This document shows, piece by piece, positions 23,124-42,628 of a stretch of 64,000 nucleotides of DNA (the first letter of the stretch is position 1; the number at the start of each line of letters is the position of its first letter). The position numbers and the translations under genes are program-made. The stretch comes from an uncultured Gammaproteobacteria bacterium. Lineage in GTDB: Bacteria; Patescibacteriota; Microgenomatia; UBA8517. The notes under the pieces were generated by a model. That model saw nothing but the letters and a program-made list of their open reading frames with translations, had not been told where the DNA came from and searched no databases. The stretch is taken from the NCBI GenBank assembly GCA_964502815.1, contig CAZCXV010000002.1:22802-86801 (forward strand), read 5' to 3'.

Positions 23124-24395
23124 ATGCAGTGGTTACTTTATACTGGTGTTATGCAAACCCTCTTAACCGTCAATGAAGCAGCAAAAAAACTCGATATATC
23201 TGTAGATACAATAAGAAGATGGGATAAAAAAGGTCTTATTAAATCTCATCGGTCAAGTAACAATTATAGATTGTTCAATCTAGAAGAAATTGGTAGAATA
23301 CACAACAAAATCTCTAACGGAGTTGGAAAGTTTCAAATCTTGAAATCACTTACAAAGACTAACTACACAGTCATCGATCTTTTTTCTGGAGCAGGAGGTA
23401 CATCCCTTGGATTTGAAAATGCAGGACTAAAACACAAATTACTTGTTGAAATTGATAAAAATGCCGTCAACACTTTAAGAAAAAACCGACCTAATTGGAA
23501 TGTAATAGAAAGCGATATATCTAAAGTTGATTTCAGGGGTTTAGAAGCCGACATTGTTGAGGGTGGTTTTCCCTGCCAAGCTTTTAGTTTCGCTGGTAAA
23601 AAAATGGGGTTTGAAGACATTAGAGGAACTTTATTTTTTGAATTTGCCAGATGCATAAAGGAAGTACGTCCAAAAATCGCGATTGGAGAAAATGTTCGAG
23701 GACTACTTCAACATGACAAAGGTAAAACTTTAAATACCATGGTTAACACATTGAAAGAGTTAGGCTATAAAGTTGGATATAAAGTGTTGAGAGCTCAATA
23801 TTTTGATGTACCTCAAAAAAGAGAACGCTTAATTATAATCGCGGTAAGAAATGATATGAATGTACCAATTATGTTTCCCAAAGAAAAAGATTACATAATA
23901 ACATTACGTGAAGCGTTAAAAAATGTCCCAATCTCCGAAGGACAATCCTACCCTAAAAAAAAGGAAAATATGATGAAACTTATATCTCCTGGTGGCTACT
24001 GGAAAGATTTACCAGTTGAAGAACAAAAAGAATATATGGGAGCTAGTTTTTATATGGGAGGAGGAAAAACCGGCATGGCTCGTAGATTATCATGGGATGA
24101 ACCATCATTGACTTTGACTACTAGTCCAGCACAAAAACAAACAGAAAGATGTCATCCCGAAGAAACGAGACCTCTCACAGTTAAAGAATATGCACGTATA
24201 CAAAGCTTTCCCGATGAATGGATTTTTGAAGGCTCAATTGGTTCACAATATAAACAAATAGGTAATGCTGTGCCTGTTAATCTTGGTTATTATATGGGCA
24301 TGACTGCAGCAGATATACTCAATAAGAATGTTGACCTTAAAAAATATGATCTTTATAAGCAAGAAGAAATCATTTTCCAAGCTGCTCTTTTGTAA
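23124..24395 (+). CDS. DNA (cytosine-5)-methyltransferase with N-terminal MerR/excisionase-like HTH domain
   Basis: HTH LTVNEAAKKLDISVDTIRRWDKKGLI; motif I DLFSGAGGTSLGF, motif IV GGFPCQAFSFAGK, motif VI ENV, C-terminal QIGNAV (motif X). Confidence 0.85.
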   Translation: MQWLLYTGVMQTLLTVNEAAKKLDISVDTIRRWDKKGLIKSHRSSNNYRLFNLEEIGRIHNKISNGVGKFQILKSLTKTNYTVIDLFSGAGGTSLGFENAGLKHKLLVEIDKNAVNTLRKNRPNWNVIESDISKVDFRGLEADIVEGGFPCQAFSFAGKKMGFEDIRGTLFFEFARCIKEVRPKIAIGENVRGLLQHDKGKTLNTMVNTLKELGYKVGYKVLRAQYFDVPQKRERLIIIAVRNDMNVPIMFPKEKDYIITLREALKNVPISEGQSYPKKKENMMKLISPGGYWKDLPVEEQKEYMGASFYMGGGKTGMARRLSWDEPSLTLTTSPAQKQTERCHPEETRPLTVKEYARIQSFPDEWIFEGSIGSQYKQIGNAVPVNLGYYMGMTAADILNKNVDLKKYDLYKQEEIIFQAALL

Positions 24396-25119
24396 AATGT
24401 ACTTTTATATCTTCTGTTAAATCCAAAAGTACCTTTTTTATTAAAGTTTTCCCCTTTACTTTTAAAGCATTAGTGCCAAATAATTCGATTAGATCAGCAT
24501 AGAAATTTTCATCTCCAGTTAAGTGATGCCAAAATTCTTTTCCAACTATCACTGAATATTCTTTGTTAATATTTTTATAATTTCCACTAAGTTCATCTTC
24601 AGTTCCATAAAGTACTCCCACAATTAAATCTTCAAGTGAAATTGATAAATTATTCGTCCTTGCGAGATTTTTGACTGCGACAAAATGCCTAGATATAGTT
24701 TCAACATCATCTTTGTTCACTGTTTGTGGACCAGCTTTAATTTGACAATACTTTTTTCTCCCATCAAGTTTATCTTCAAATTCTATATCAATTCCAGAGG
24801 TCGTCGAAGCAAAACCTGAAAGAACCTGACTACAAAACTTTTGTAGATTATTACCAAAACTTGTATTTATTGAAGTACCCAATATACGTGGATATAAGAG
24901 TACTTTTGCAAGTGTTTCTGGTTTTGTATTACCGTCCATAAAAATTCCCAAATAATTTAATAAAAAAGGATTGTATTTAAACGAGGATAGTTTTCGCAAT
25001 TTCTTTAAGTTACTAACGTGATTTGGAATTATCGTTTCTCCAAAAAACTTTTTTGCGTTTTCTAAAATTTGTATTTTAAGCTTTTCGTCCATTCTCCCGG
25101 TAATATTAACACAAATCAA
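24370..25119 (-). CDS. putative type II restriction endonuclease (partner of the C5-MTase)
   Basis: Convergent with the MTase and overlapping it by 26 nt at the 3' ends. ~240-250 aa with no transporter or enzyme motifs; possible degenerate PD-(D/E)xK-like region GIDIEFEDK...CQIKAG. Assigned from context only. Confidence 0.4.
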   Translation of the reverse strand: MICVNITGRMDEKLKIQILENAKKFFGETIIPNHVSNLKKLRKLSSFKYNPFLLNYLGIFMDGNTKPETLAKVLLYPRILGTSINTSFGNNLQKFCSQVLSGFASTTSGIDIEFEDKLDGRKKYCQIKAGPQTVNKDDVETISRHFVAVKNLARTNNLSISLEDLIVGVLYGTEDELSGNYKNINKEYSVIVGKEFWHHLTGDENFYADLIELFGTNALKVKGKTLIKKVLLDLTEDIKVHFTKEQLGK

Positions 25120-32178: not shown

Positions 32179-32834
32179 TTTGTTTTCTTCCCCTGAGCTT
32201 TCGCCATTGTTTTTACTTTAACTTCTGGCTTTTTGGTTTTTTCTTTGACAACTTCAAAAATTGCTGCATCTAAAACTAGCTTTCCGCCGAAGACAACATC
32301 GTAGGCATTAAGATCTTTAAAGCTAATAATCTTAGTATCTTTTAAGTTTTTGAGCGTTTTTGTTTTTTTAATGTTTACTTCTGTAAGAGCAATTATCATT
32401 CTGCCAAAATCAGTTAATTTTCTAGCATCTTTAGTTTTCTTGACAGTAGATAGTCCTTCAATGGCAATAACTTCACCCATCTTTGCTTTCATGGAAAGAG
32501 CAACATTTAAAGCTTTTCTTTTCATTTTTGTTGAAAGAGTCAAAACCTTTTGCTCAAGCTTTGGTCCATGGGCAATTCCCCCGCCAACATAAATTGGGGC
32601 TCTTCTTGATCCATGTCTTGCGCCACCCGTTCCCTTTTGTTTGTAAACCTTTTTAGTGGTTCTATTTATTTCAGCTCTAGTTTTGGTTTTAGAACTACCA
32701 ATATGGACTCTATCTTGGTAGATATGTACAGCCTGAGAGACAAGACTCAAATTCTCTTTTTCTTCCATATATTTTGGAAGTATAACTTGACCAGTTTTCA
32801 TTGCTTTTAAGTTAAATTTATCTATCTTAAGCAT
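32175..32834 (-). CDS. rplD: 50S ribosomal protein L4
   Basis: KQKGTGGARHGSRRAPIYVGGG.AHGPK core. Confidence 0.85.
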   Translation of the reverse strand: MLKIDKFNLKAMKTGQVILPKYMEEKENLSLVSQAVHIYQDRVHIGSSKTKTRAEINRTTKKVYKQKGTGGARHGSRRAPIYVGGGIAHGPKLEQKVLTLSTKMKRKALNVALSMKAKMGEVIAIEGLSTVKKTKDARKLTDFGRMIIALTEVNIKKTKTLKNLKDTKIISFKDLNAYDVVFGGKLVLDAAIFEVVKEKTKKPEVKVKTMAKAQGKKTK

Positions 32835-33558
32835 TTTCTTCCTCCTTGGCTTCTACTTTTTCTTCTACTTGTGGTTCCTGGACTACGACTGGGTTTTTCA
32901 CAACCAAAGGGTGCCAAGCTTTGCTTGTTTCTCCGACTCTGGTAATTCTAATTAAGCTTCCAACTGTCCCTGGAATTGCGCCTTTGAGCATTATTTCATC
33001 GGTTTGCGGATCTACTTGTATTACTTCTAAGTTTTTAATTGTTTTAGTGTCTGATCCCATTCTTCCGGCCATGTGTTTTCCTTTATAGACTCTTCCTGGA
33101 GTTGTTCCCTGACCGATTGATCCTGGAGCACGGTGTCTATCTGACTGACCATGAGTTTTTGGCCCGCCGGCAAAGCCCCACCTTTTCACTCCTCCGGCAA
33201 AGCCTTTACCTTTGGAAATACCAGTGACATTAACCGTGTCTCCTTGAGACAATACATCTGTCAAGGATATTTTGTCGCCTGACTTGAGGTCGGTGTCAGC
33301 CACTTTTACTTCACGCAAAAAATTAGGAGCTGTCTTTCCATTTACAGCTCCTTTAAGGTGTCCCAATAGGGGTTTGGTAATATTTTTGGTTTTCTTGGCT
33401 CCTGTGCCAATTTGGACGGCTAAATAACCATCTTTGTCTTGAGATTTGACTTGGGTAACTATGTTTGGGGTAACTTTGACTACAGTTACAGAAACCCTCT
33501 CGTCGCCGACGAAGGTTTGGGTCATTTTTGACTTGGTTCCCAGTATTGTATTAAACAT
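32827..33558 (-). CDS. rplC: 50S ribosomal protein L3
   Basis: Start at MFNTILGTKSKMTQTF (matches L3 N-terminus M.GILGKK.GMTQ.F); GKGFAGGVKRWGF.GGP.THG.S..HR.PGSIG core. Track start (GTG 33573) abuts a terminator T-tract. Confidence 0.85.
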   Translation of the reverse strand: MFNTILGTKSKMTQTFVGDERVSVTVVKVTPNIVTQVKSQDKDGYLAVQIGTGAKKTKNITKPLLGHLKGAVNGKTAPNFLREVKVADTDLKSGDKISLTDVLSQGDTVNVTGISKGKGFAGGVKRWGFAGGPKTHGQSDRHRAPGSIGQGTTPGRVYKGKHMAGRMGSDTKTIKNLEVIQVDPQTDEIMLKGAIPGTVGSLIRITRVGETSKAWHPLVVKNPVVVQEPQVEEKVEAKEEENA

Positions 33559-33573
33559 AAATTTATAAACCAC

Positions 33574-33596
33574 AAAAAAAGGTGCCCTAAGGCACC
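33574..33596 (-). terminator. intrinsic terminator-like hairpin + U7 in the rplC leader (candidate attenuator)
   Basis: Minus-strand GGTGCC-TTAG-GGCACC (6-bp GC-rich stem, 4-nt loop, plus 33581-33596) followed by TTTTTTT (plus 33574-33580), 16 nt upstream of the rplC ATG. Confidence 0.5.
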
Positions 33597-33670
33597 ATAT
33601 ATGAAAAATACGGCCTTTTGGGGGCTACCCGTGATCAAAAGTGACGAACTAATATAACCACGCAAGAAGG

Positions 33671-33699
33671 ATTATATCAAAGAAGGACTGAGCCTGCAA
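33671..33699 (-). promoter_or_regulatory. sigma70-like promoter TTGCAG-17-TATAAT upstream of the rplC leader
   Basis: Minus-strand -35 TTGCAG (plus 33694-33699), 17-nt spacer, -10 TATAAT (plus 33671-33676). Lies between the 141-aa ORF stop and the leader hairpin. Confidence 0.4.
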
Positions 33700-33708
33700 C
33701 TTACGAAG

Positions 33709-34134
33709 TTAAGTTAGACCTAATCTTAAATTAACTGGACCATCTGTTAACATACCCCTATATTCACGACCAATTTCCCCAATCACATCTTTTGAAGACA
33801 AACTCATTTTTGGTGCATATTTCTCAACTAGGGCTCTTGCGGCTGGTACCCCAGCCAAAGCCGCGCCCAATATACCGCCAACCAGATATCTAATCGCATT
33901 TTTCTGAGTCCCAACACTATCAAGTGCAATCTGGAAACCTGAATCAAAAACATTAGCCTCTGCTTGAGGGGGAGATGATCCCAGGATTGCATTAGACACT
34001 CCTCTTACAAACCAGTTATCATACCCATCAGGATATTCCATAGATAAATAATTCATCACTTCCACTAACTTTTGTGGCATGACTTGTGTATCCACAATAT
34101 CACCAGCTCTAATTTGTTTAAAAATCTCTGACAT
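33709..34134 (-). CDS. hypothetical protein (141 aa) between rpsJ and rplC
   Basis: Clean ORF in the operon orientation; no recognised motifs (Gly/Ala-rich GGILGAALAGVPAARAL segment). Its AUG lies within a 7-bp hairpin (34133-34150). Confidence 0.4.
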   Translation of the reverse strand: MSEIFKQIRAGDIVDTQVMPQKLVEVMNYLSMEYPDGYDNWFVRGVSNAILGSSPPQAEANVFDSGFQIALDSVGTQKNAIRYLVGGILGAALAGVPAARALVEKYAPKMSLSSKDVIGEIGREYRGMLTDGPVNLRLGLT

Positions 34135-34150
34135 AGGCTGTGTAGCCTAT
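34133..34150 (-). promoter_or_regulatory. perfect 7-bp hairpin ATAGGCT-GTGT-AGCCTAT overlapping the start codon of the 141-aa ORF
   Basis: Inverted repeat seen directly in the sequence; the AUG of the 141-aa ORF (34132-34134) is formed by the last two bases of the 3' arm plus one base. Confidence 0.35.
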
Positions 34151-34194
34151 CAAATAGATAAGCGTAGGTGTCAACCCTCAAATATCCTATAAGA

Positions 34195-34506
34195 TTACAT
34201 CTTTACCTCAATGGAGACACCTGCTGGAAGATCAAGATTAGAAAGATTATCAATAGTTCTCGGAGACGGATCCACTATATCAATAAGGCGCTTGTGGACC
34301 AAAATTTCAAAGTGTTCCTGGGCATTTTTAATACCTCTAGAGGTGGATGGGGTAACTGCCATCATAGTTCTTTTGGTAGGTAAAGGAAGAGGACCAATTA
34401 CTTTGGCACCAGTTGCAATTGCAGTTTCAATAATTTTTGCAGCAGCCTCATCGATTACACGGTAATCGTAGCTTTTCAATTTGACTCGTAGTCTTCCACT
34501 AGGCAT
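34195..34506 (-). CDS. rpsJ: 30S ribosomal protein S10
   Basis: RLRVKLKSYDYRVIDEAAAKIIETAIATGAKVIGPLPLPT...RLIDIV is canonical S10. Confidence 0.9.
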   Translation of the reverse strand: MPSGRLRVKLKSYDYRVIDEAAAKIIETAIATGAKVIGPLPLPTKRTMMAVTPSTSRGIKNAQEHFEILVHKRLIDIVDPSPRTIDNLSNLDLPAGVSIEVKM

Positions 34507-34538: not shown

Positions 34539-35717
34539 TTAAGCTATAATCTTGGTAATAACTCCAGCTCCAACTGTTCTGCCACCTTCTCGGATGGCAA
34601 ATCTCATCCCTTCTTCAAGGGCTACTGGAACTATTAATTTTACTTTCATTTTAGCATTGTCTCCTGGCATAACCATTTCAATGCCTTCAGGTAGAGTTGC
34701 CTCTCCTGTAACGTCCGCTGTCCTTATAAAAAACTGTGGCTTGTAGCCTGTGAAAAATGGTGTATGTCTTCCACCTTCTTCTTTAGAAAGAATGTAAACT
34801 TCGGCTTCAAACTCGGTGTGGGGAGTAATCGATCCCGGCTTTGCCAAAACTTGGCCTCTTTCAATGTCGTCTTTTTCAATACCTCGAAGCAAAAGTCCGG
34901 CATTGTCTCCAGCTTGAGCATCATCAAGGCTCTTTCTAAACATTTCAATACCAGTTACAACGGTTTTCTTGGTTGGTTTTATTCCAACAATTTCAATTTC
35001 TCCGTTTAATTTCAAAGCTCCTCTTTCAACCCTGCCAGTTACAACAGTTCCACGTCCTTTAATAGAAAAGACATCTTCAACAGGCATTAAGAAAGGCTTA
35101 TCAGTATCACGAACTGGATCCGGGATATAGGTGTCAACCGCATCCATAAGAGCCTGGATTTGTTTTTCTGCTTCCCCGTCGCCTTCTGTAGCTTTAAGAG
35201 CTGATCCTTTAATTACTGGTACATCGTCTCCTGGGTATTCATATTTTTTGAGAAGATCCCTAACATCTGCTTCAACCAAGTCAATAATTTCTGGGTCATC
35301 AACCATGTCGCATTTATTCAAAAAAACTACCAAAGCTGGTACGTTAACCTGGCGAGCTAAGATTACGTGCTCTCTGGTTTGTGGCATAGGACCATCTACT
35401 GCAGAAACTACCAAGATTGCTCCATCCATCTGAGCAGCACCAGTGATCATATTCTTGATGTAATCTGCGTGACCTGGAGCATCGATGTGGGCATAGTGCC
35501 TTTTTTCAGTTTCATATTCTTGGTGAGAAAGATTAATAGTAACTCCTCGCTGTCTTTCTTCTGGCGCTGAATCAATGTCGCCATAAGTTTTTGCAGTCGC
35601 AAGACCCTTTTTGGCCAAAACCATAGTAATAGCTGAGGTTAAAGTAGTTTTTCCATGATCAACGTGACCGATGGTTCCGATATTTACGTGTGGTTTAGTT
35701 CTTGAAAATGCTGCCAT
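34539..35717 (-). CDS. tuf: elongation factor Tu
   Basis: [26 protein letters not shown]-motifs and an EF-Tu-like sequence over its full length; a TATAAT-like hexamer (minus, plus 35728-35733) sits only 10 nt upstream of the ATG. Confidence 0.95.
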
Positions 35718-39752: not shown

Positions 39753-41924
39753 TTAGTTTCTAGTAGCAGGGCCAGCCATTTTTTTAGCAACTAACATGGC
39801 TTGGATATTTGCAGGAACTTCTTCATAATGGGATGGCTCAATATAGGGAACTGCTCTTCCTTGAGTCATTGACCGAAGTTGGGTGGTAAAACCAGACAGT
39901 TCTCCCAAAGGTGCCATGCCATTTACCACAGTCATCATTCCTCTTTCCTCTGTTCCTTGAATTTGGGCTCTTTTACTGGAAAGAGAGCCAATAACATCTC
40001 CCATATATTCTGCAGGAGTAGTTACTTCAATTTTTACAATTGGCTCAAGTATTACTATATCGGCATTTTTGGCAGCTGCCTCAACTGCCATAGAGCCTGC
40101 AATCTTAAAAGACATTTCAGAAGAATCCACATCGTGGAAAGAGCCATCATAAACTGCTACCAAAACATCAGTTAGTGTAAATCCCGCAAGTATCCCTCCT
40201 TCAAGTTTTTCTTTAATGCCTTTTTCAATTGCCGGAATGAAAGACTGGGGAATTGCACCACCTTTAATCTCAGAAACAAATTTAAAACCTTCTCCCCGAG
40301 GCCGTGGTTCAATCCTAACGAAACAGTGGCCATATTGACCTCTGCCTCCAGTTTGCCTAATGTATTTGCCTTCGCCAGTTGCAGCCTTTTTAACCGTTTC
40401 TTTGTAGGCAACTTGGGGAGCTCCTGTGTTTGCAACTACATTAAATTCTCTGCGCATTCGGTCAACCAAAATTTCTAGCTGCAATTCTCCCATGCCGGAA
40501 ATAATTGTCTGGCCGGTTTCAAGGTTTGACTTGATTCTAAAAGTTGGATCCTCATCAGATAATTTATTTAAAGCCAATCCCATTCTTTCCTGATCAGTTT
40601 TTGTTGCGGGCTCAATGGCCAGAGAAATAACTGGCTCAGGAAAAGTAATTGCTTCCAAATGAATCGGATTTTTTTGCTGACAAAGGGTATCTCCAGTGGT
40701 AGTCTCTTTAAAGCCTACAACAGCCACAATTTCCCCAGAATAAGCTTCATCAACCAGTTCCCTCTGATCTGCATGCATCAAAACTAATTTGCCAACCCGC
40801 TCAGAAGTTTGCCTAACGGTGTTATAAATACTTTCCCCAGCTTTTATGGTTCCAGAATAAACTCGCACAAATACTAGTCTTCCTACATGCGGATCAGTCA
40901 TTACTTTAAATGCCAAGGCTGATAGGGGAGCCTCATTGTTTCTCTCCATGAGAACTTTCTGACCATTTCTAGGATCTGTTCCTTCAACCATCGGAAGGTC
41001 AATGGGGGAGGGAAGATATTCAACCACTGCGTCAAGAAGGGTTCTAACGGTTACCATTCTGTTGTCGCCTCCTAGGATTGGGAAGAATTTGCCCGAAATT
41101 ACGCCTTTTCTAATTGCTCTTTTAATATCTGCTTCCGTTAATTCCTGACCCTCAAGATATTTATTCAAAGCTTCATCATCATACTCGGCAACTTTTTCAA
41201 TAAGTTCCTCCCGATACTGCTTTGCCTTGTCTAGCATATCTGTAGGGATTTCTTCTTCAGCCAGTTGATTATCTTCAATGTCTTTGTAGGTATAGGCCTT
41301 CATCTTTACCAGATCAACAATTCCATGCAGCTCGTGTTCAAAACCAATTGGTAGCTGAATAGCCACCGCATTTGCCCCAAGTCTTTCATGAATAGACTTT
41401 AAAGAGCCTTCAAAGTCAGCCCCAATTAAATTAAGTTTATTTAAGACACAGATTCTTGGCACATTGTATTTATTCGCTTGCCTCCAGACAGTTTCTGACT
41501 GGCTTTCTACTCCTGTTCGGCCGTCAAACACCATGACCGCACCATCAAGAACCCGCAGGGAACGCTCAACTTCAGCCGTGAAGTCAATGTGGCCTGGAGT
41601 ATCGATAATATTTACTCTATAGTGGCCATTTTCAACTGAAGACGAACTTTGCAAATCCCAGAAAGTGGTGATAGCTGCAGAAACAATAGTAATTCCTCGT
41701 TCTCTTTCCTGATCCATCCAATCAGTGACGGTTGTTCCTTCGTCAACCGATCCATGCTTGTAAGTCTTGCCAGTTTCAAAAAGAATACGTTCTGTAGTAG
41801 TGGTTTTTCCGGCATCAATATGGGCAATAATACCGATATTTCGGATTTTTTCATACGACACCAAACGATCCTTGGTGACCGTTGAAGCAATAGCTGATTT
41901 TTTCTTTGCAACTTGTCCTGCCAT
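39753..41924 (-). CDS. fusA: elongation factor G
   Basis: AHIDAGKTTTTERILF, DTPGHIDF, NKLN G-motifs and EF-G domains II-V; 723 aa. Confidence 0.95.
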   Translation of the reverse strand: MAGQVAKKKSAIASTVTKDRLVSYEKIRNIGIIAHIDAGKTTTTERILFETGKTYKHGSVDEGTTVTDWMDQERERGITIVSAAITTFWDLQSSSSVENGHYRVNIIDTPGHIDFTAEVERSLRVLDGAVMVFDGRTGVESQSETVWRQANKYNVPRICVLNKLNLIGADFEGSLKSIHERLGANAVAIQLPIGFEHELHGIVDLVKMKAYTYKDIEDNQLAEEEIPTDMLDKAKQYREELIEKVAEYDDEALNKYLEGQELTEADIKRAIRKGVISGKFFPILGGDNRMVTVRTLLDAVVEYLPSPIDLPMVEGTDPRNGQKVLMERNNEAPLSALAFKVMTDPHVGRLVFVRVYSGTIKAGESIYNTVRQTSERVGKLVLMHADQRELVDEAYSGEIVAVVGFKETTTGDTLCQQKNPIHLEAITFPEPVISLAIEPATKTDQERMGLALNKLSDEDPTFRIKSNLETGQTIISGMGELQLEILVDRMRREFNVVANTGAPQVAYKETVKKAATGEGKYIRQTGGRGQYGHCFVRIEPRPRGEGFKFVSEIKGGAIPQSFIPAIEKGIKEKLEGGILAGFTLTDVLVAVYDGSFHDVDSSEMSFKIAGSMAVEAAAKNADIVILEPIVKIEVTTPAEYMGDVIGSLSSKRAQIQGTEERGMMTVVNGMAPLGELSGFTTQLRSMTQGRAVPYIEPSHYEEVPANIQAMLVAKKMAGPATRN

Positions 41925-42166: not shown

Positions 42167-42259
42167 TTATTTTTTATCCACCACAAAAAAAATTATATAA
42201 CTACCAACGAGCGTAAGTGTTGCCCCAATTATCATTACTATTTGATATGCTTGAATCAT
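42167..42259 (-). CDS. small hydrophobic peptide B (30 aa, single TM)
   Basis: MIQAYQIVMIIGATLTLVGSYIIFFVVDKK; start overlaps the stop of peptide A (ATGA). Confidence 0.3.
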   Translation of the reverse strand: MIQAYQIVMIIGATLTLVGSYIIFFVVDKK

Positions 42260-42381
42260 TTTATTTTAGCCTTCCTATTTTTATTTCTTTTCAAATTCAA
42301 TAATAACACAGCACCCCAAATAAGAGCCAAACCTTGAATCAGCCAAAATACGCCAATACCAAAATTGAAATCAAATTGCAT
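42256..42381 (-). CDS. small hydrophobic peptide A (41 aa, single TM, basic tail)
   Basis: MQFDFNFGIGVFWLIQGLALIWGAVLLLNLKRNKNRKAKIK; overlaps the 3' end of the upstream 67-aa ORF in another frame. Confidence 0.3.
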   Translation of the reverse strand: MQFDFNFGIGVFWLIQGLALIWGAVLLLNLKRNKNRKAKIK

Positions 42382-42574
42382 TTATTTCCCTTTCTTCTTG
42401 TAATTTGAGTCCAATCCTAATACATCCATATACTGCTAAAGTACTTAATACAATGTTAATAATTTTAATAATAAATGTCGTGTTTGTGGGAATATTTGAA
42501 AATCCAAAAATACCAAGAGTGATCCCTTTTGCTAAATCATAGAAAAAGCTTGCTAGAGAATCGGCTTGTTTCAT
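42371..42574 (-). CDS. small membrane protein (67 aa)
   Basis: Start at internal Met (MKQADSLASFFYDLAKGITLGIFGF...). The track ORF's longer N-terminus would cover the consensus promoter, so the shorter form is preferred. Confidence 0.35.
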   Translation of the reverse strand: MKQADSLASFFYDLAKGITLGIFGFSNIPTNTTFIIKIINIVLSTLAVYGCIRIGLKLQEEREINAI

Positions 42575-42599
42575 ATTAAATAACGAATACATTAAATCC

Positions 42600-42628
42600 A
42601 TACTAAAACAAATTTTTAACTTTGTCAA
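42600..42628 (-). promoter_or_regulatory. consensus sigma70-type promoter TTGACA-17-TAGTAT for the small-peptide operon
   Basis: Minus-strand -35 TTGACA (plus 42623-42628), 17-nt spacer, -10 TAGTAT (plus 42600-42605), ~25 nt upstream of the 67-aa ORF start. Confidence 0.4.

Follow-up and report, generated by a model that had tools for sequence, protein, structure and literature searches.

Several ribosomal proteins (r-proteins) control their own operons by transcription attenuation. L10 regulates in this way, and the B. subtilis L10(L12)4 leader of rplJL is reportedly an r-protein-responsive transcription attenuator. In the E. coli S10 leader, L4 and NusA terminate transcription; attenuation there works through L4/NusA-stabilised pausing, and no antiterminator has been described (work of Zengel and Lindahl, as reviewed in PMC3616713). 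In Bacillus, L20 acts by attenuation at the leader of infC-rpmI-rplT (RF00558), where binding to an upstream helix picks between alternative folds and a terminator with a covarying stem (PMC3849166). Directly upstream of rplC-rplD-rplW-rplB, the sole published r-protein leader (r-leader) candidate is the L4 candidate of Archaeoglobi, which is archaeal and was graded uncertain by its authors (Eckert and Weinberg 2020, PMC7247131). Here, we describe a leader RNA that precedes rplC, the gene for L3, on the minus strand of a 64-kb stretch of DNA (hereafter the window) from a contig of groundwater metagenomes; an L3 search shows that its L3 is most similar to those of Woesebacteria and further Microgenomates, which belong to the Candidate Phyla Radiation (CPR). 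This rplC leader is quite probably a regulated attenuator, and it is probably a cis-acting transcription attenuator of the rplC (L3-L4-...-L15) operon whose most likely effector is an r-protein encoded downstream.

By analogy, the E. coli S10 leader is the functionally closest system. Both RNAs are leaders of an S10-type r-protein cluster in which an upstream hairpin is followed by an intrinsic terminator and a U-run, all transcription of the operon crosses the terminator, and the logic is autogenous feedback on transcription, as proposed here for rplC. However, the E. coli leader precedes rpsJ, whereas the rplC leader leaves rpsJ outside, co-linear with tuf. The E. coli leader has five hairpins and a translational arm that overlaps the S10 start, and it is found in Gammaproteobacteria; the rplC leader carries a covarying antiterminator (AT) and is found in Woesebacteria-like CPR genomes. 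On the region upstream of E. coli rpsJ, the covariance model R1 of the rplC leader (see below) gave chance scores alone (E >= 1.1), with no detectable homology, and judged by the hairpins HA-HE and HG upstream of rpsJ, the rplC leader falls outside the E. coli S10 leader family. The sequence-only reading of this DNA had likened the locus to the S10 attenuator; a leader with its own promoter and terminator before r-protein genes is indeed what is seen, but the likeness does not extend to homology, nor to position. Similarly, the L20 and L10(L12)4 leaders belong to different operons, differ in sequence and structure, and yield no Rfam match to the rplC leader at E <= 10. Mimicry of 23S rRNA is evident at the L20 site, but no mimicry of E. 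coli rRNA was detectable in the rplC leader. A model of the Archaeoglobi L4 r-leader, which we take to be included in Rfam, gave no match at the rplC leader.

Relatives were gathered by L3 scans of one genome per species and of JGI metagenomes, which gave 160 loci (numbered with the prefix L). Thirty-six leaders (35 distinct) carry the same module upstream of rplC. Their sources are metagenomes and Woesebacteria-like genomes of the CPR, with L3 identities of 51-71%, and the module lies in the 100-200 nt before rplC at every locus with L3 identity of at least about 51% and an rpsJ-rplC gap that is not tiny. Its order is cTTGC, a 17-nt spacer, TTTGnTATAAT, RTG (A or G, then TG), a 5′-proximal hairpin (P1), a linker, a GC-rich hairpin (T), U5-U8 and rplC; the rpsJ-rplC distance varies from 130 to 2671 nt among the leaders. 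When MAFFT and RNAalifold were run on 34 untrimmed leaders, the alignment was too noisy and gave zero pairs, and it was replaced by per-sequence constrained folds, by a trimmed MAFFT alignment made without structural information (A3) and by an alignment based on a covariance model (A4). Model R1 was built from 21 trimmed leaders (A3) with P1 and T annotated, and it was searched against the window and the 160 loci (887,623 bases, both strands). In the window, R1 matches the whole leader RNA at 33575-33665 on the minus strand (46.5 bits, E = 1.6e-7), and there is no second match in the 64 kb. Each Woesebacteria-type locus gives one match, always immediately 5′ of rplC and on the sense strand, including members outside the seed (L011, L012, L091, L097, L101, L111-L113, L117 and L125); nothing else was found in the search space except two chance-level matches (E ~0.7). 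As a conserved structured RNA that consistently lies 5′ of an r-protein operon on the sense strand, the rplC leader is, on this comparative evidence, a putative r-leader.

The sole match at gathering level in the window by Rfam models is tRNA-Pro. Rfam 15 at E <= 10 on positions 33400-34300 gave chance-level matches to snoRNAs and small RNAs (sRNAs) alone, far below threshold, and a scan of seven related loci gave no match at E <= 0.5; in the control, the E. coli S10 leader itself went unmatched by Rfam 15, so this silence says little on that family. In our literature searches, no r-protein leader was found described for CPR, Patescibacteria or Microgenomates. It is very probable, from these comparisons, that the rplC leader is a previously undescribed RNA family doing a known kind of job.

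The hairpin T (33581-33596, minus strand; GGUGCC-UUAG-GGCACC) has a 6-bp stem with five GC pairs and a 4-nt loop. It is followed by a U7 tract (33574-33580) and by a spacer (33573-33559) to the rplC ATG (33558-33556). This is the terminator-type hairpin that had been picked out by the sequence-only reading, at 33596-33574 with its U-tract, although the spacer given there as 16 nt is actually 15 nt. In isolation, T folds at -13.1 kcal/mol (z = -3.4), a value equalled by none of 200 shuffles, and it ranks second among the terminator-like sites of a consensus scan, which found 17 such sites in 8 kb versus 6.8 +/- 2.4 in shuffles and no terminator between rpsJ and the leader. The hairpin and U-tract are kept in all 36 leaders, with U-runs of T5-T8 in all relatives, and the stem changes in a compensatory manner (GGUGCC/GGCACC, GGCGCC/GGCGCC, GACCCC/GGGGUC, AGCCCC/GGGGCU and GGUGUC/GACACC). 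By its GC-rich hairpin and its U-tract on the transcribed strand, T is an intrinsic (Rho-independent) terminator, with termination itself predicted.

The position of T relative to the gene has a direct consequence. The U-tract ends 0-171 nt from the ATG overall, at most 30 nt from it in 23 of 35 leaders and 0 nt from it in L010 and L091; since no promoter fits in this space (15 nt in the window, 0 nt in L010 and L091), rplC expression needs read-through of T. These distances also bear on the idea that promoter, ~90-nt RNA and terminator form a free-standing gene for a trans-acting sRNA, whose synteny with rplC would be incidental. Such a gene would agree with the presence of an own promoter and an own terminator, and 10 relatives have a spacer of 72-171 nt between terminator and rplC, with promoter-like sequence in some of these spacers (TTGGTA-17-TATAAA in L015). 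On the other hand, most leaders leave no room for a promoter behind the U-tract, and the leader is always linked to rplC, whatever its upstream neighbour (rpsJ, an FtsJ-like methyltransferase, orphans and others). In addition, the AT fold described below makes sense only in cis. A free-standing sRNA is therefore regarded as highly improbable.

Two further features of the sequence between T and rplC were observed. The 15 nt after the U-tract (GUGGUUUAUAAAUUU, 33559-33573) nearly repeat the 5′ strand of P1 (GUGGUUAUAUUAG, 33653-33661), and GUGG, GUUG or GAUG directly follows the U-run in many relatives; the near-repeat may be due to chance, or, in transcripts that have read through T, it may compete from downstream for the 3′ strand of P1. 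The long terminator-to-ATG spacers (72-171 nt; L089, L098, L111 and L117) hold more GC-rich hairpins, such as CCCCGCUCUUUAAGAGCGGGG in L098 and CCCCUCCGAAG...CGAAGGGGGG in L111. These hairpins and the promoter-like sites in some long spacers may act as a second regulatory element or a secondary promoter, or they may be small repeats that were inserted.

An alternative antiterminator fold, which the sequence-only reading had suggested looking for, is supported by shuffle, chimera and covariation tests. In the window, AT spans 33581-33629 (minus strand) and uses up both arms of T. Its outer helix pairs GGU (33629-33627) and GCCC (33625-33622), which lie in the 5′ strand GGUAGCCC (33629-33622), with GGGC (33587-33584) and ACC (33583-33581), and its inner helix pairs GCCGUAU (33614-33608) with AUAUGGU (33600-33594). 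The fold with AT has an energy of -25.2 kcal/mol, versus -22.2 kcal/mol with T. In many members, the unconstrained minimum free energy (MFE) fold of the whole leader is not the terminator. It is a longer hairpin, with the loop and 3′ arm of T bound by an upstream strand and the 5′ arm of T bound by a second one. Folding of the growing transcript of the window begins with P1; a small local hairpin (P2) comes next, the inner AT helix forms as the 5′ arm of T appears, and the full AT follows last.

For the shuffle test, the best fold of each leader with T enforced was compared with the best fold with the T pairs forbidden, and this was repeated with the upstream part dinucleotide-shuffled. In 33 of 36 leaders, no more than half of the shuffles gave a difference E(AT) minus E(T) as low as the native one, which puts the native value below the shuffle median; in 25 of the 36, no more than 12% of the shuffles were as low; for the window, 2% of the shuffled upstreams do as well. 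In the chimera test, each upstream part was joined to the terminator of every other leader, and the native pairing fell in the best decile in 14 of 35 cases versus ~3.5 expected (rank of the window, 0.06). On A3 (21 relatives), six AT pairs were scored, in which GYY meets GGC of the 3′ arm of T and GGA/R meets the loop YUCY. They are 81.7% paired versus 33-58% with the partner slid, and their pairing, double changes and covariation score each exceed those of all 500 shuffles; because the AT columns were picked after inspection of pair frequencies, the covariation test is somewhat optimistic, which tells against the strength of this result. In the window and its nearest relative, L008, both AT strands have changed together (GGUAGCC(C/U) with GGGCACC, loop UUAG). 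The loop of T is itself conserved, mostly as CUCC or CUCU, which is unusual among terminators, and is complementary to the upstream GGAG/GGAR strand; the loop is conserved because it pairs in AT. A simpler pairing of a GGAGG box with a terminator loop CCUCC was considered as the universal antiterminator and rejected: it holds in some members (L009 and L028) and fails in the window and in the GGAGAAG subgroup. Based on the comparative evidence, a mutually exclusive fold that sequesters the terminator arms appears to be conserved by covariation, which makes this part of the leader an expression platform.

The covarying AT pairing and the conserved terminator loop would both be left unexplained if the element were unregulated. 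In that case, T would be a constitutive leaky terminator that ends transcripts of tuf-rpsJ (and of ORF141, an orphan open reading frame behind rpsJ in the window) and fixes the rplC level, or the whole would be a general stability element of the 5′ untranslated region (5′-UTR) or a U-rich ribosome-loading element, with P1 as the 5′ stabilising hairpin. Such a role is in line with the absence of a detected terminator from rpsJ to the leader, and with the genes here being without obvious Shine-Dalgarno (SD) sequences. Moreover, in the same window, hairpins with U-runs stand directly after the promoters of fusA and tuf, and the tuf arrangement recurs in Woesebacteria relatives (L010, L011, L014, L017, L100, L105, L111 and L117). 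Nevertheless, the 0-171 nt range between U-tract and ATG argues against a ribosome-loading role, and T follows only after ~70-90 nt of transcript that include a conserved structured domain, unlike the fusA and tuf hairpins, which begin 7-10 nt past strong sigma-70-type promoters, at the very 5′ end, with no upstream domain. An unregulated element deserves serious consideration but is judged unlikely.

In the fusA leader (minus strand), the promoter TTGCTA-17-TATAAT (42001-41973) is followed by the hairpin AUCCCGAUAUGGAAUCGGGAU (41965-41945), the U-run CUUUUUUG and the ATG at 41924. In the tuf leader (minus strand), the promoter TTGACA-18-TATAAT (35825-35796) is followed by the hairpin AGGCUAAAUUAGGCCU (35786-35771), UUUUU and the ATG at 35717. 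A stem of the form UCCCGAU...AUCGGGA occurs in the fusA leader of the window and in the tuf leaders of L105, L111 and L017. The fusA and tuf hairpins may be 5′ stabilisers, promoter-proximal attenuators or protein operators.

The conserved structured domain in front of AT is P1 (33630-33662, minus strand), which was found in MFE folds and pairs CGUGGUUA (33662-33655) with UGAUCACG (33637-33630). Its 17-nt loop holds the conserved motif GUUCGUCA (33649-33642). The five core pairs of P1 are 83.8% paired on A3 versus 27-55% with the partner slid, and four of the five change on both sides in the covariance-model alignment. Taken together on that alignment (30 sequences), P1 and T are 83.2% paired; both partners vary in 9 of their 13 pairs, and the covariation score exceeds that of all 500 shuffles. 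A likeness of GGUUCGUCA to a tRNA T-loop was rejected on inspection, as there is a U where a T-loop needs A58. The hairpin P2 (GCC/CCCAAAA/GGC; 33613-33625, minus strand) appears in the terminator-constrained fold and in growing-transcript folds at 52-64 nt. It covers both 5′ strands of AT and was seen in the window and L008 only; the folds make it a weak candidate for an anti-antiterminator.

P1 of the window also contains a mini-ORF (GTG...TGA, 33635-33661, minus strand) that reads literally as VVILVRHF, where the initial GTG would be Met. If this near-leaderless ORF were translated from its RTG, a ribosome at its stop could cover the start of the AT 5′ strand and cause termination, few translating ribosomes would give read-through, and the operon would sense translational capacity directly. 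The RTG is invariant in the 36 leaders and lies mostly (30 of 36) 8-10 nt past the -10 element, which puts it 2-4 nt from the predicted 5′ end; from it, every leader has an ORF of 6-18 codons. On reading of the sequences, the stop (TAA, TAG or TGA) lies directly 5′ of the P1 3′ strand in about half of the leaders, 18, 21, 24 or 27 nt from the start, and the stop of the window lies 6 nt before the AT 5′ strand. However, there is no SD sequence and no room for one, and the start codon is buried in P1. The RTG is explained by P1 pairing and by a purine at or near +1, ORFs so short are expected by chance in AT-rich sequence, and the stop is ~17 nt from the AT strand in members such as L110. Furthermore, the peptide is not conserved and GUUCGUCA falls in different reading frames among the leaders, so conservation is at the RNA level. 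Attenuation by ribosomes on a leader ORF is therefore judged distinctly unlikely.

The transcript that would carry P1, AT and T appears to start from its own promoter. The minus-strand promoter TTGCAG-17-TATAAT, claimed by the sequence-only reading, is present at those positions and conserved in relatives. It consists of the -35 element TTGCAG (33694-33699; clade consensus cTTGC), a 17-nt spacer that ends in TG, the extended -10 element TG-A-TATAAT (33671-33679; TG at 33679-33678 and TATAAT at 33676-33671), and a C-rich discriminator with the predicted start (33663-33670; start at ~33664-33662 from promoter geometry). The invariant RTG (GTG at 33661-33659 in the window) lies 9 nt past the -10. 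A transcription start site near 33664 would give a leader of ~105 nt, as had been estimated. A generic consensus scan passed over this promoter, since TTGCAG and TTGACA agree at just 3 of 6 positions; promoter-like matches in the region are at the chance level (18 found versus 18.4 expected), so from the window alone the promoter is weak evidence. Across 33 related leaders, however, TTGC (88-100%), TTTG (76-94%) and TATAAT (82-100%) are conserved at fixed spacing, whereas the spacer positions are merely 27-45% conserved, as in random sequence. It is this conservation with an unconserved spacer that makes the promoter credible. Judged by its elements and by its conserved position relative to the RNA, it is a sigma-70-type promoter with an extended -10, its activity being predicted. 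An overlapping scan match, TTGATA-18-TATATT (33680-33651, minus strand), whose -10 falls within the P1 5′ strand and loop, is probably fortuitous, as it is not conserved and L008 has GGTAATACAG there. Pairing of a 5′ pyrimidine tract with the antiterminator region was also dropped, since the tract is probably upstream of the start site, in the discriminator.

Based on the results presented above, the following mechanism may be proposed. Transcription would start near 33664 from the strong extended -10 promoter, and the first ~33 nt would fold into P1. The next ~50 nt would then adopt one of two exclusive folds, AT or the intrinsic terminator with U7. AT is predicted to be the thermodynamic default in the window, which would allow read-through and keep the operon ON. 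A trans-acting factor may bind P1, the adjacent linker and the AT 5′ strand, possibly stabilising P2; the bound factor would block AT, T would form, and transcripts would end near 33574, 15 nt before rplC, so that the operon is OFF. If the factor is a ribosomal protein encoded downstream, the circuit would be autogenous feedback. Termination, the direction of the switch, the transcription start and the identity of the effector are predictions from sequence and folds. That the effector is an r-protein of the operon has, taken by itself, somewhat less than an even chance; the best guess is L4, by analogy with E. coli, and L3 is the product of the first gene.

Several points weigh against this proposal. 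The P1 loop motif GUUCGUCA is present in just ~60% of the members. A P1 profile gave no nhmmer match to E. coli 16S and 23S rRNA, and a profile of the linker/AT region gave only non-significant ones (E >= 2); this mimicry test measured sequence similarity to E. coli rRNA and not to the rRNA of the host, and structural mimicry is outside its reach. Likenesses to 16S h31 and to 23S positions ~2550-2600 noticed by eye were dropped after this non-significant comparison. P2 has just 3-4 bp, and P1 and AT do not overlap, so that the transmission of P1 binding to AT is a supposed step. A better-than-chance AT is missing in about a quarter to a third of the members (e.g., L009, L010, L098, L111, L125 and L147). 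Finally, in the fusA and tuf leaders of the window, too, a hairpin with a U-run directly follows the promoter, without a sensor domain; a hairpin and U-run after a promoter may be a general 5′-UTR feature in the clade and not always a regulated terminator.

The same two-state architecture is found in riboswitch expression platforms. It is conceivable that a small molecule (a nucleotide alarmone or NTP), or a factor other than an r-protein such as NusA or NusG, sets the balance between AT and T; the C-rich discriminator hints at growth-rate control at the promoter. However, the universal conservation of loop and junction nucleotides that marks aptamers is missing here, the P1 loops being completely different in L104, L116, L102 and L011, and Rfam gave no match at E <= 10. 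A narrow distribution and fast divergence, as seen here, typify r-protein leaders (PMC3616713). An effector of this kind is considered very unlikely. A broader reading, in which promoter-proximal termination controls the output of translation genes across the clade and the rplC sensor reads ribosomes or a global signal instead of one r-protein, also appears rather improbable. Under that reading, fusA, tuf and rplC would be instances of such control, each having a hairpin and U-run behind its strong promoter; rplC would have gained in addition a sensor consisting of P1, the near-leaderless mini-ORF and, in many members, the perfect anti-SD complement GGAGGUG; and the quantity sensed could be free ribosomes, translational capacity, or a global signal (NTP, alarmone or Nus factor).

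The attenuator proposed here for Woesebacteria-like genomes has a counterpart at the same position in a sister lineage. In Curtissbacteria-type genomes of the Microgenomates, a different and hitherto undescribed conserved hairpin with a U-run is found at the rpsJ-rplC junction, 7-130 nt before rplC (L023, L031, L032, L038, L041, L046, L048, L051-L054, L057, L060, L062, L124, L137, L139-L142, L155 and L158-L165). This RNA has the form GGUGGGAC-A-CCUGAA-(GACAU or a variable inserted hairpin)-CUAAGG-A-GUCCUGCC-U5, and thus shares the genomic position and the hairpin/U-run ending with the rplC leader but is a different RNA; it is matched neither by R1 nor by any Rfam model. Between its apical part and E. 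coli 23S rRNA 192-205 (CUGAAACAUCUAAG), 14 of 15 positions agree, a score equalled by ~5% of shuffled queries, and the match sits within a GGGG/CCCC-type stem, as in rRNA. From its sequence, the Curtissbacteria-type hairpin looks like an rRNA-mimic r-protein leader of 23S domain I. As to the protein that binds 23S helix 11, no answer was found in PMC9935924.

In the window, all genes of the locus discussed here lie on the minus strand: tuf (35717-34539), rpsJ (34506-34195), ORF141 (33709-34134), the leader and rplC (32827-33558; open reading frame list and Pfam labels on the source contig). The rplC gene is followed by rplD and further r-protein genes. The controlled unit would comprise 18 genes, in the order L3, L4, L23, L2, S19, L22, S3, L16, L29, S17, L14, L24, L5, S8, L6, L18, S5 and L15, as labelled by Pfam. 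It had been supposed that the unit runs on continuously to secY, which is not the case: a type II restriction-modification pair (23124-25119) stands between rplO (25571-25140) and secY (23071-21779) and breaks the usual continuity of the spc operon. The endonuclease of the pair is EcoO109I-like (25119-24370, minus strand); the methylase, a C5 cytosine enzyme with an N-terminal MerR-type HTH (23124-24395, plus strand), runs opposite to the operon.

ORF141 encodes 141 aa, ends 150 nt before rplC and lies outside the switch, between rpsJ and the leader promoter. Its sole match among 5.8e9 proteins is itself, it has no Pfam family, and it shows no similarity to the 167-aa ORF at the same spot in L008. 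The ORF is absent from the relatives with the same leader, and in L010, L099, L104, L111, L113 and L125 the promoter begins 7-26 nt past the rpsJ stop with no insert. The rpsJ-to-promoter gaps of L008, L011-L019, L090, L098, L100-L102 and L105 and of the window (33709-34194) were surveyed for inserts. An FtsJ/TlyA-like methyltransferase (Pfam PF01728, E = 3.5e-25) occupies the gap in at least 10 relatives, and others hold unrelated ORFs of up to 2.5 kb, including a MucR-like protein, a glycosyltransferase-sized ORF and various orphans; all inserts are upstream of the leader promoter. In L011, the coding end of the methyltransferase overlaps the -35 element. By this comparison, the space between rpsJ and the promoter is a hot spot for lineage-specific gene insertion. 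Since the inserts differ and are always upstream of the promoter, and some relatives are insert-free, the ancestral order of the clade is rpsJ, promoter with leader, then rplC. The same module in the insert-free relatives also means that it is older than the ORF141 insertion, and the earlier suggestion that promoter and attenuator were acquired after ORF141 had split the unit from rpsJ is not tenable.

Upstream of fusA, the rpsG-fusA interval of ~680 nt contains three small called ORFs on the minus strand (76, 41 and 30 aa; ~42167-42601) that are hydrophobic on reading and have no Pfam label on the source contig. The sequence TTGACA-17-TAGTAT (42628-42600) precedes them.

Gene regulation is almost unknown in CPR bacteria, which have tiny genomes, few regulators and unusual ribosomes. 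If the attenuator proposed here is true, a concrete RNA switch would stand over 18 r-protein genes in Woesebacteria-like organisms, a conclusion whose support is comparative. The ~35 natural variants with compensatory changes are usable for biochemical tests, and the new RNA family is a possible addition to annotation pipelines. It would also follow that transcription-attenuation feedback on the S10/spc cluster has been re-invented with an unrelated RNA at the rpsJ/rplC junction.

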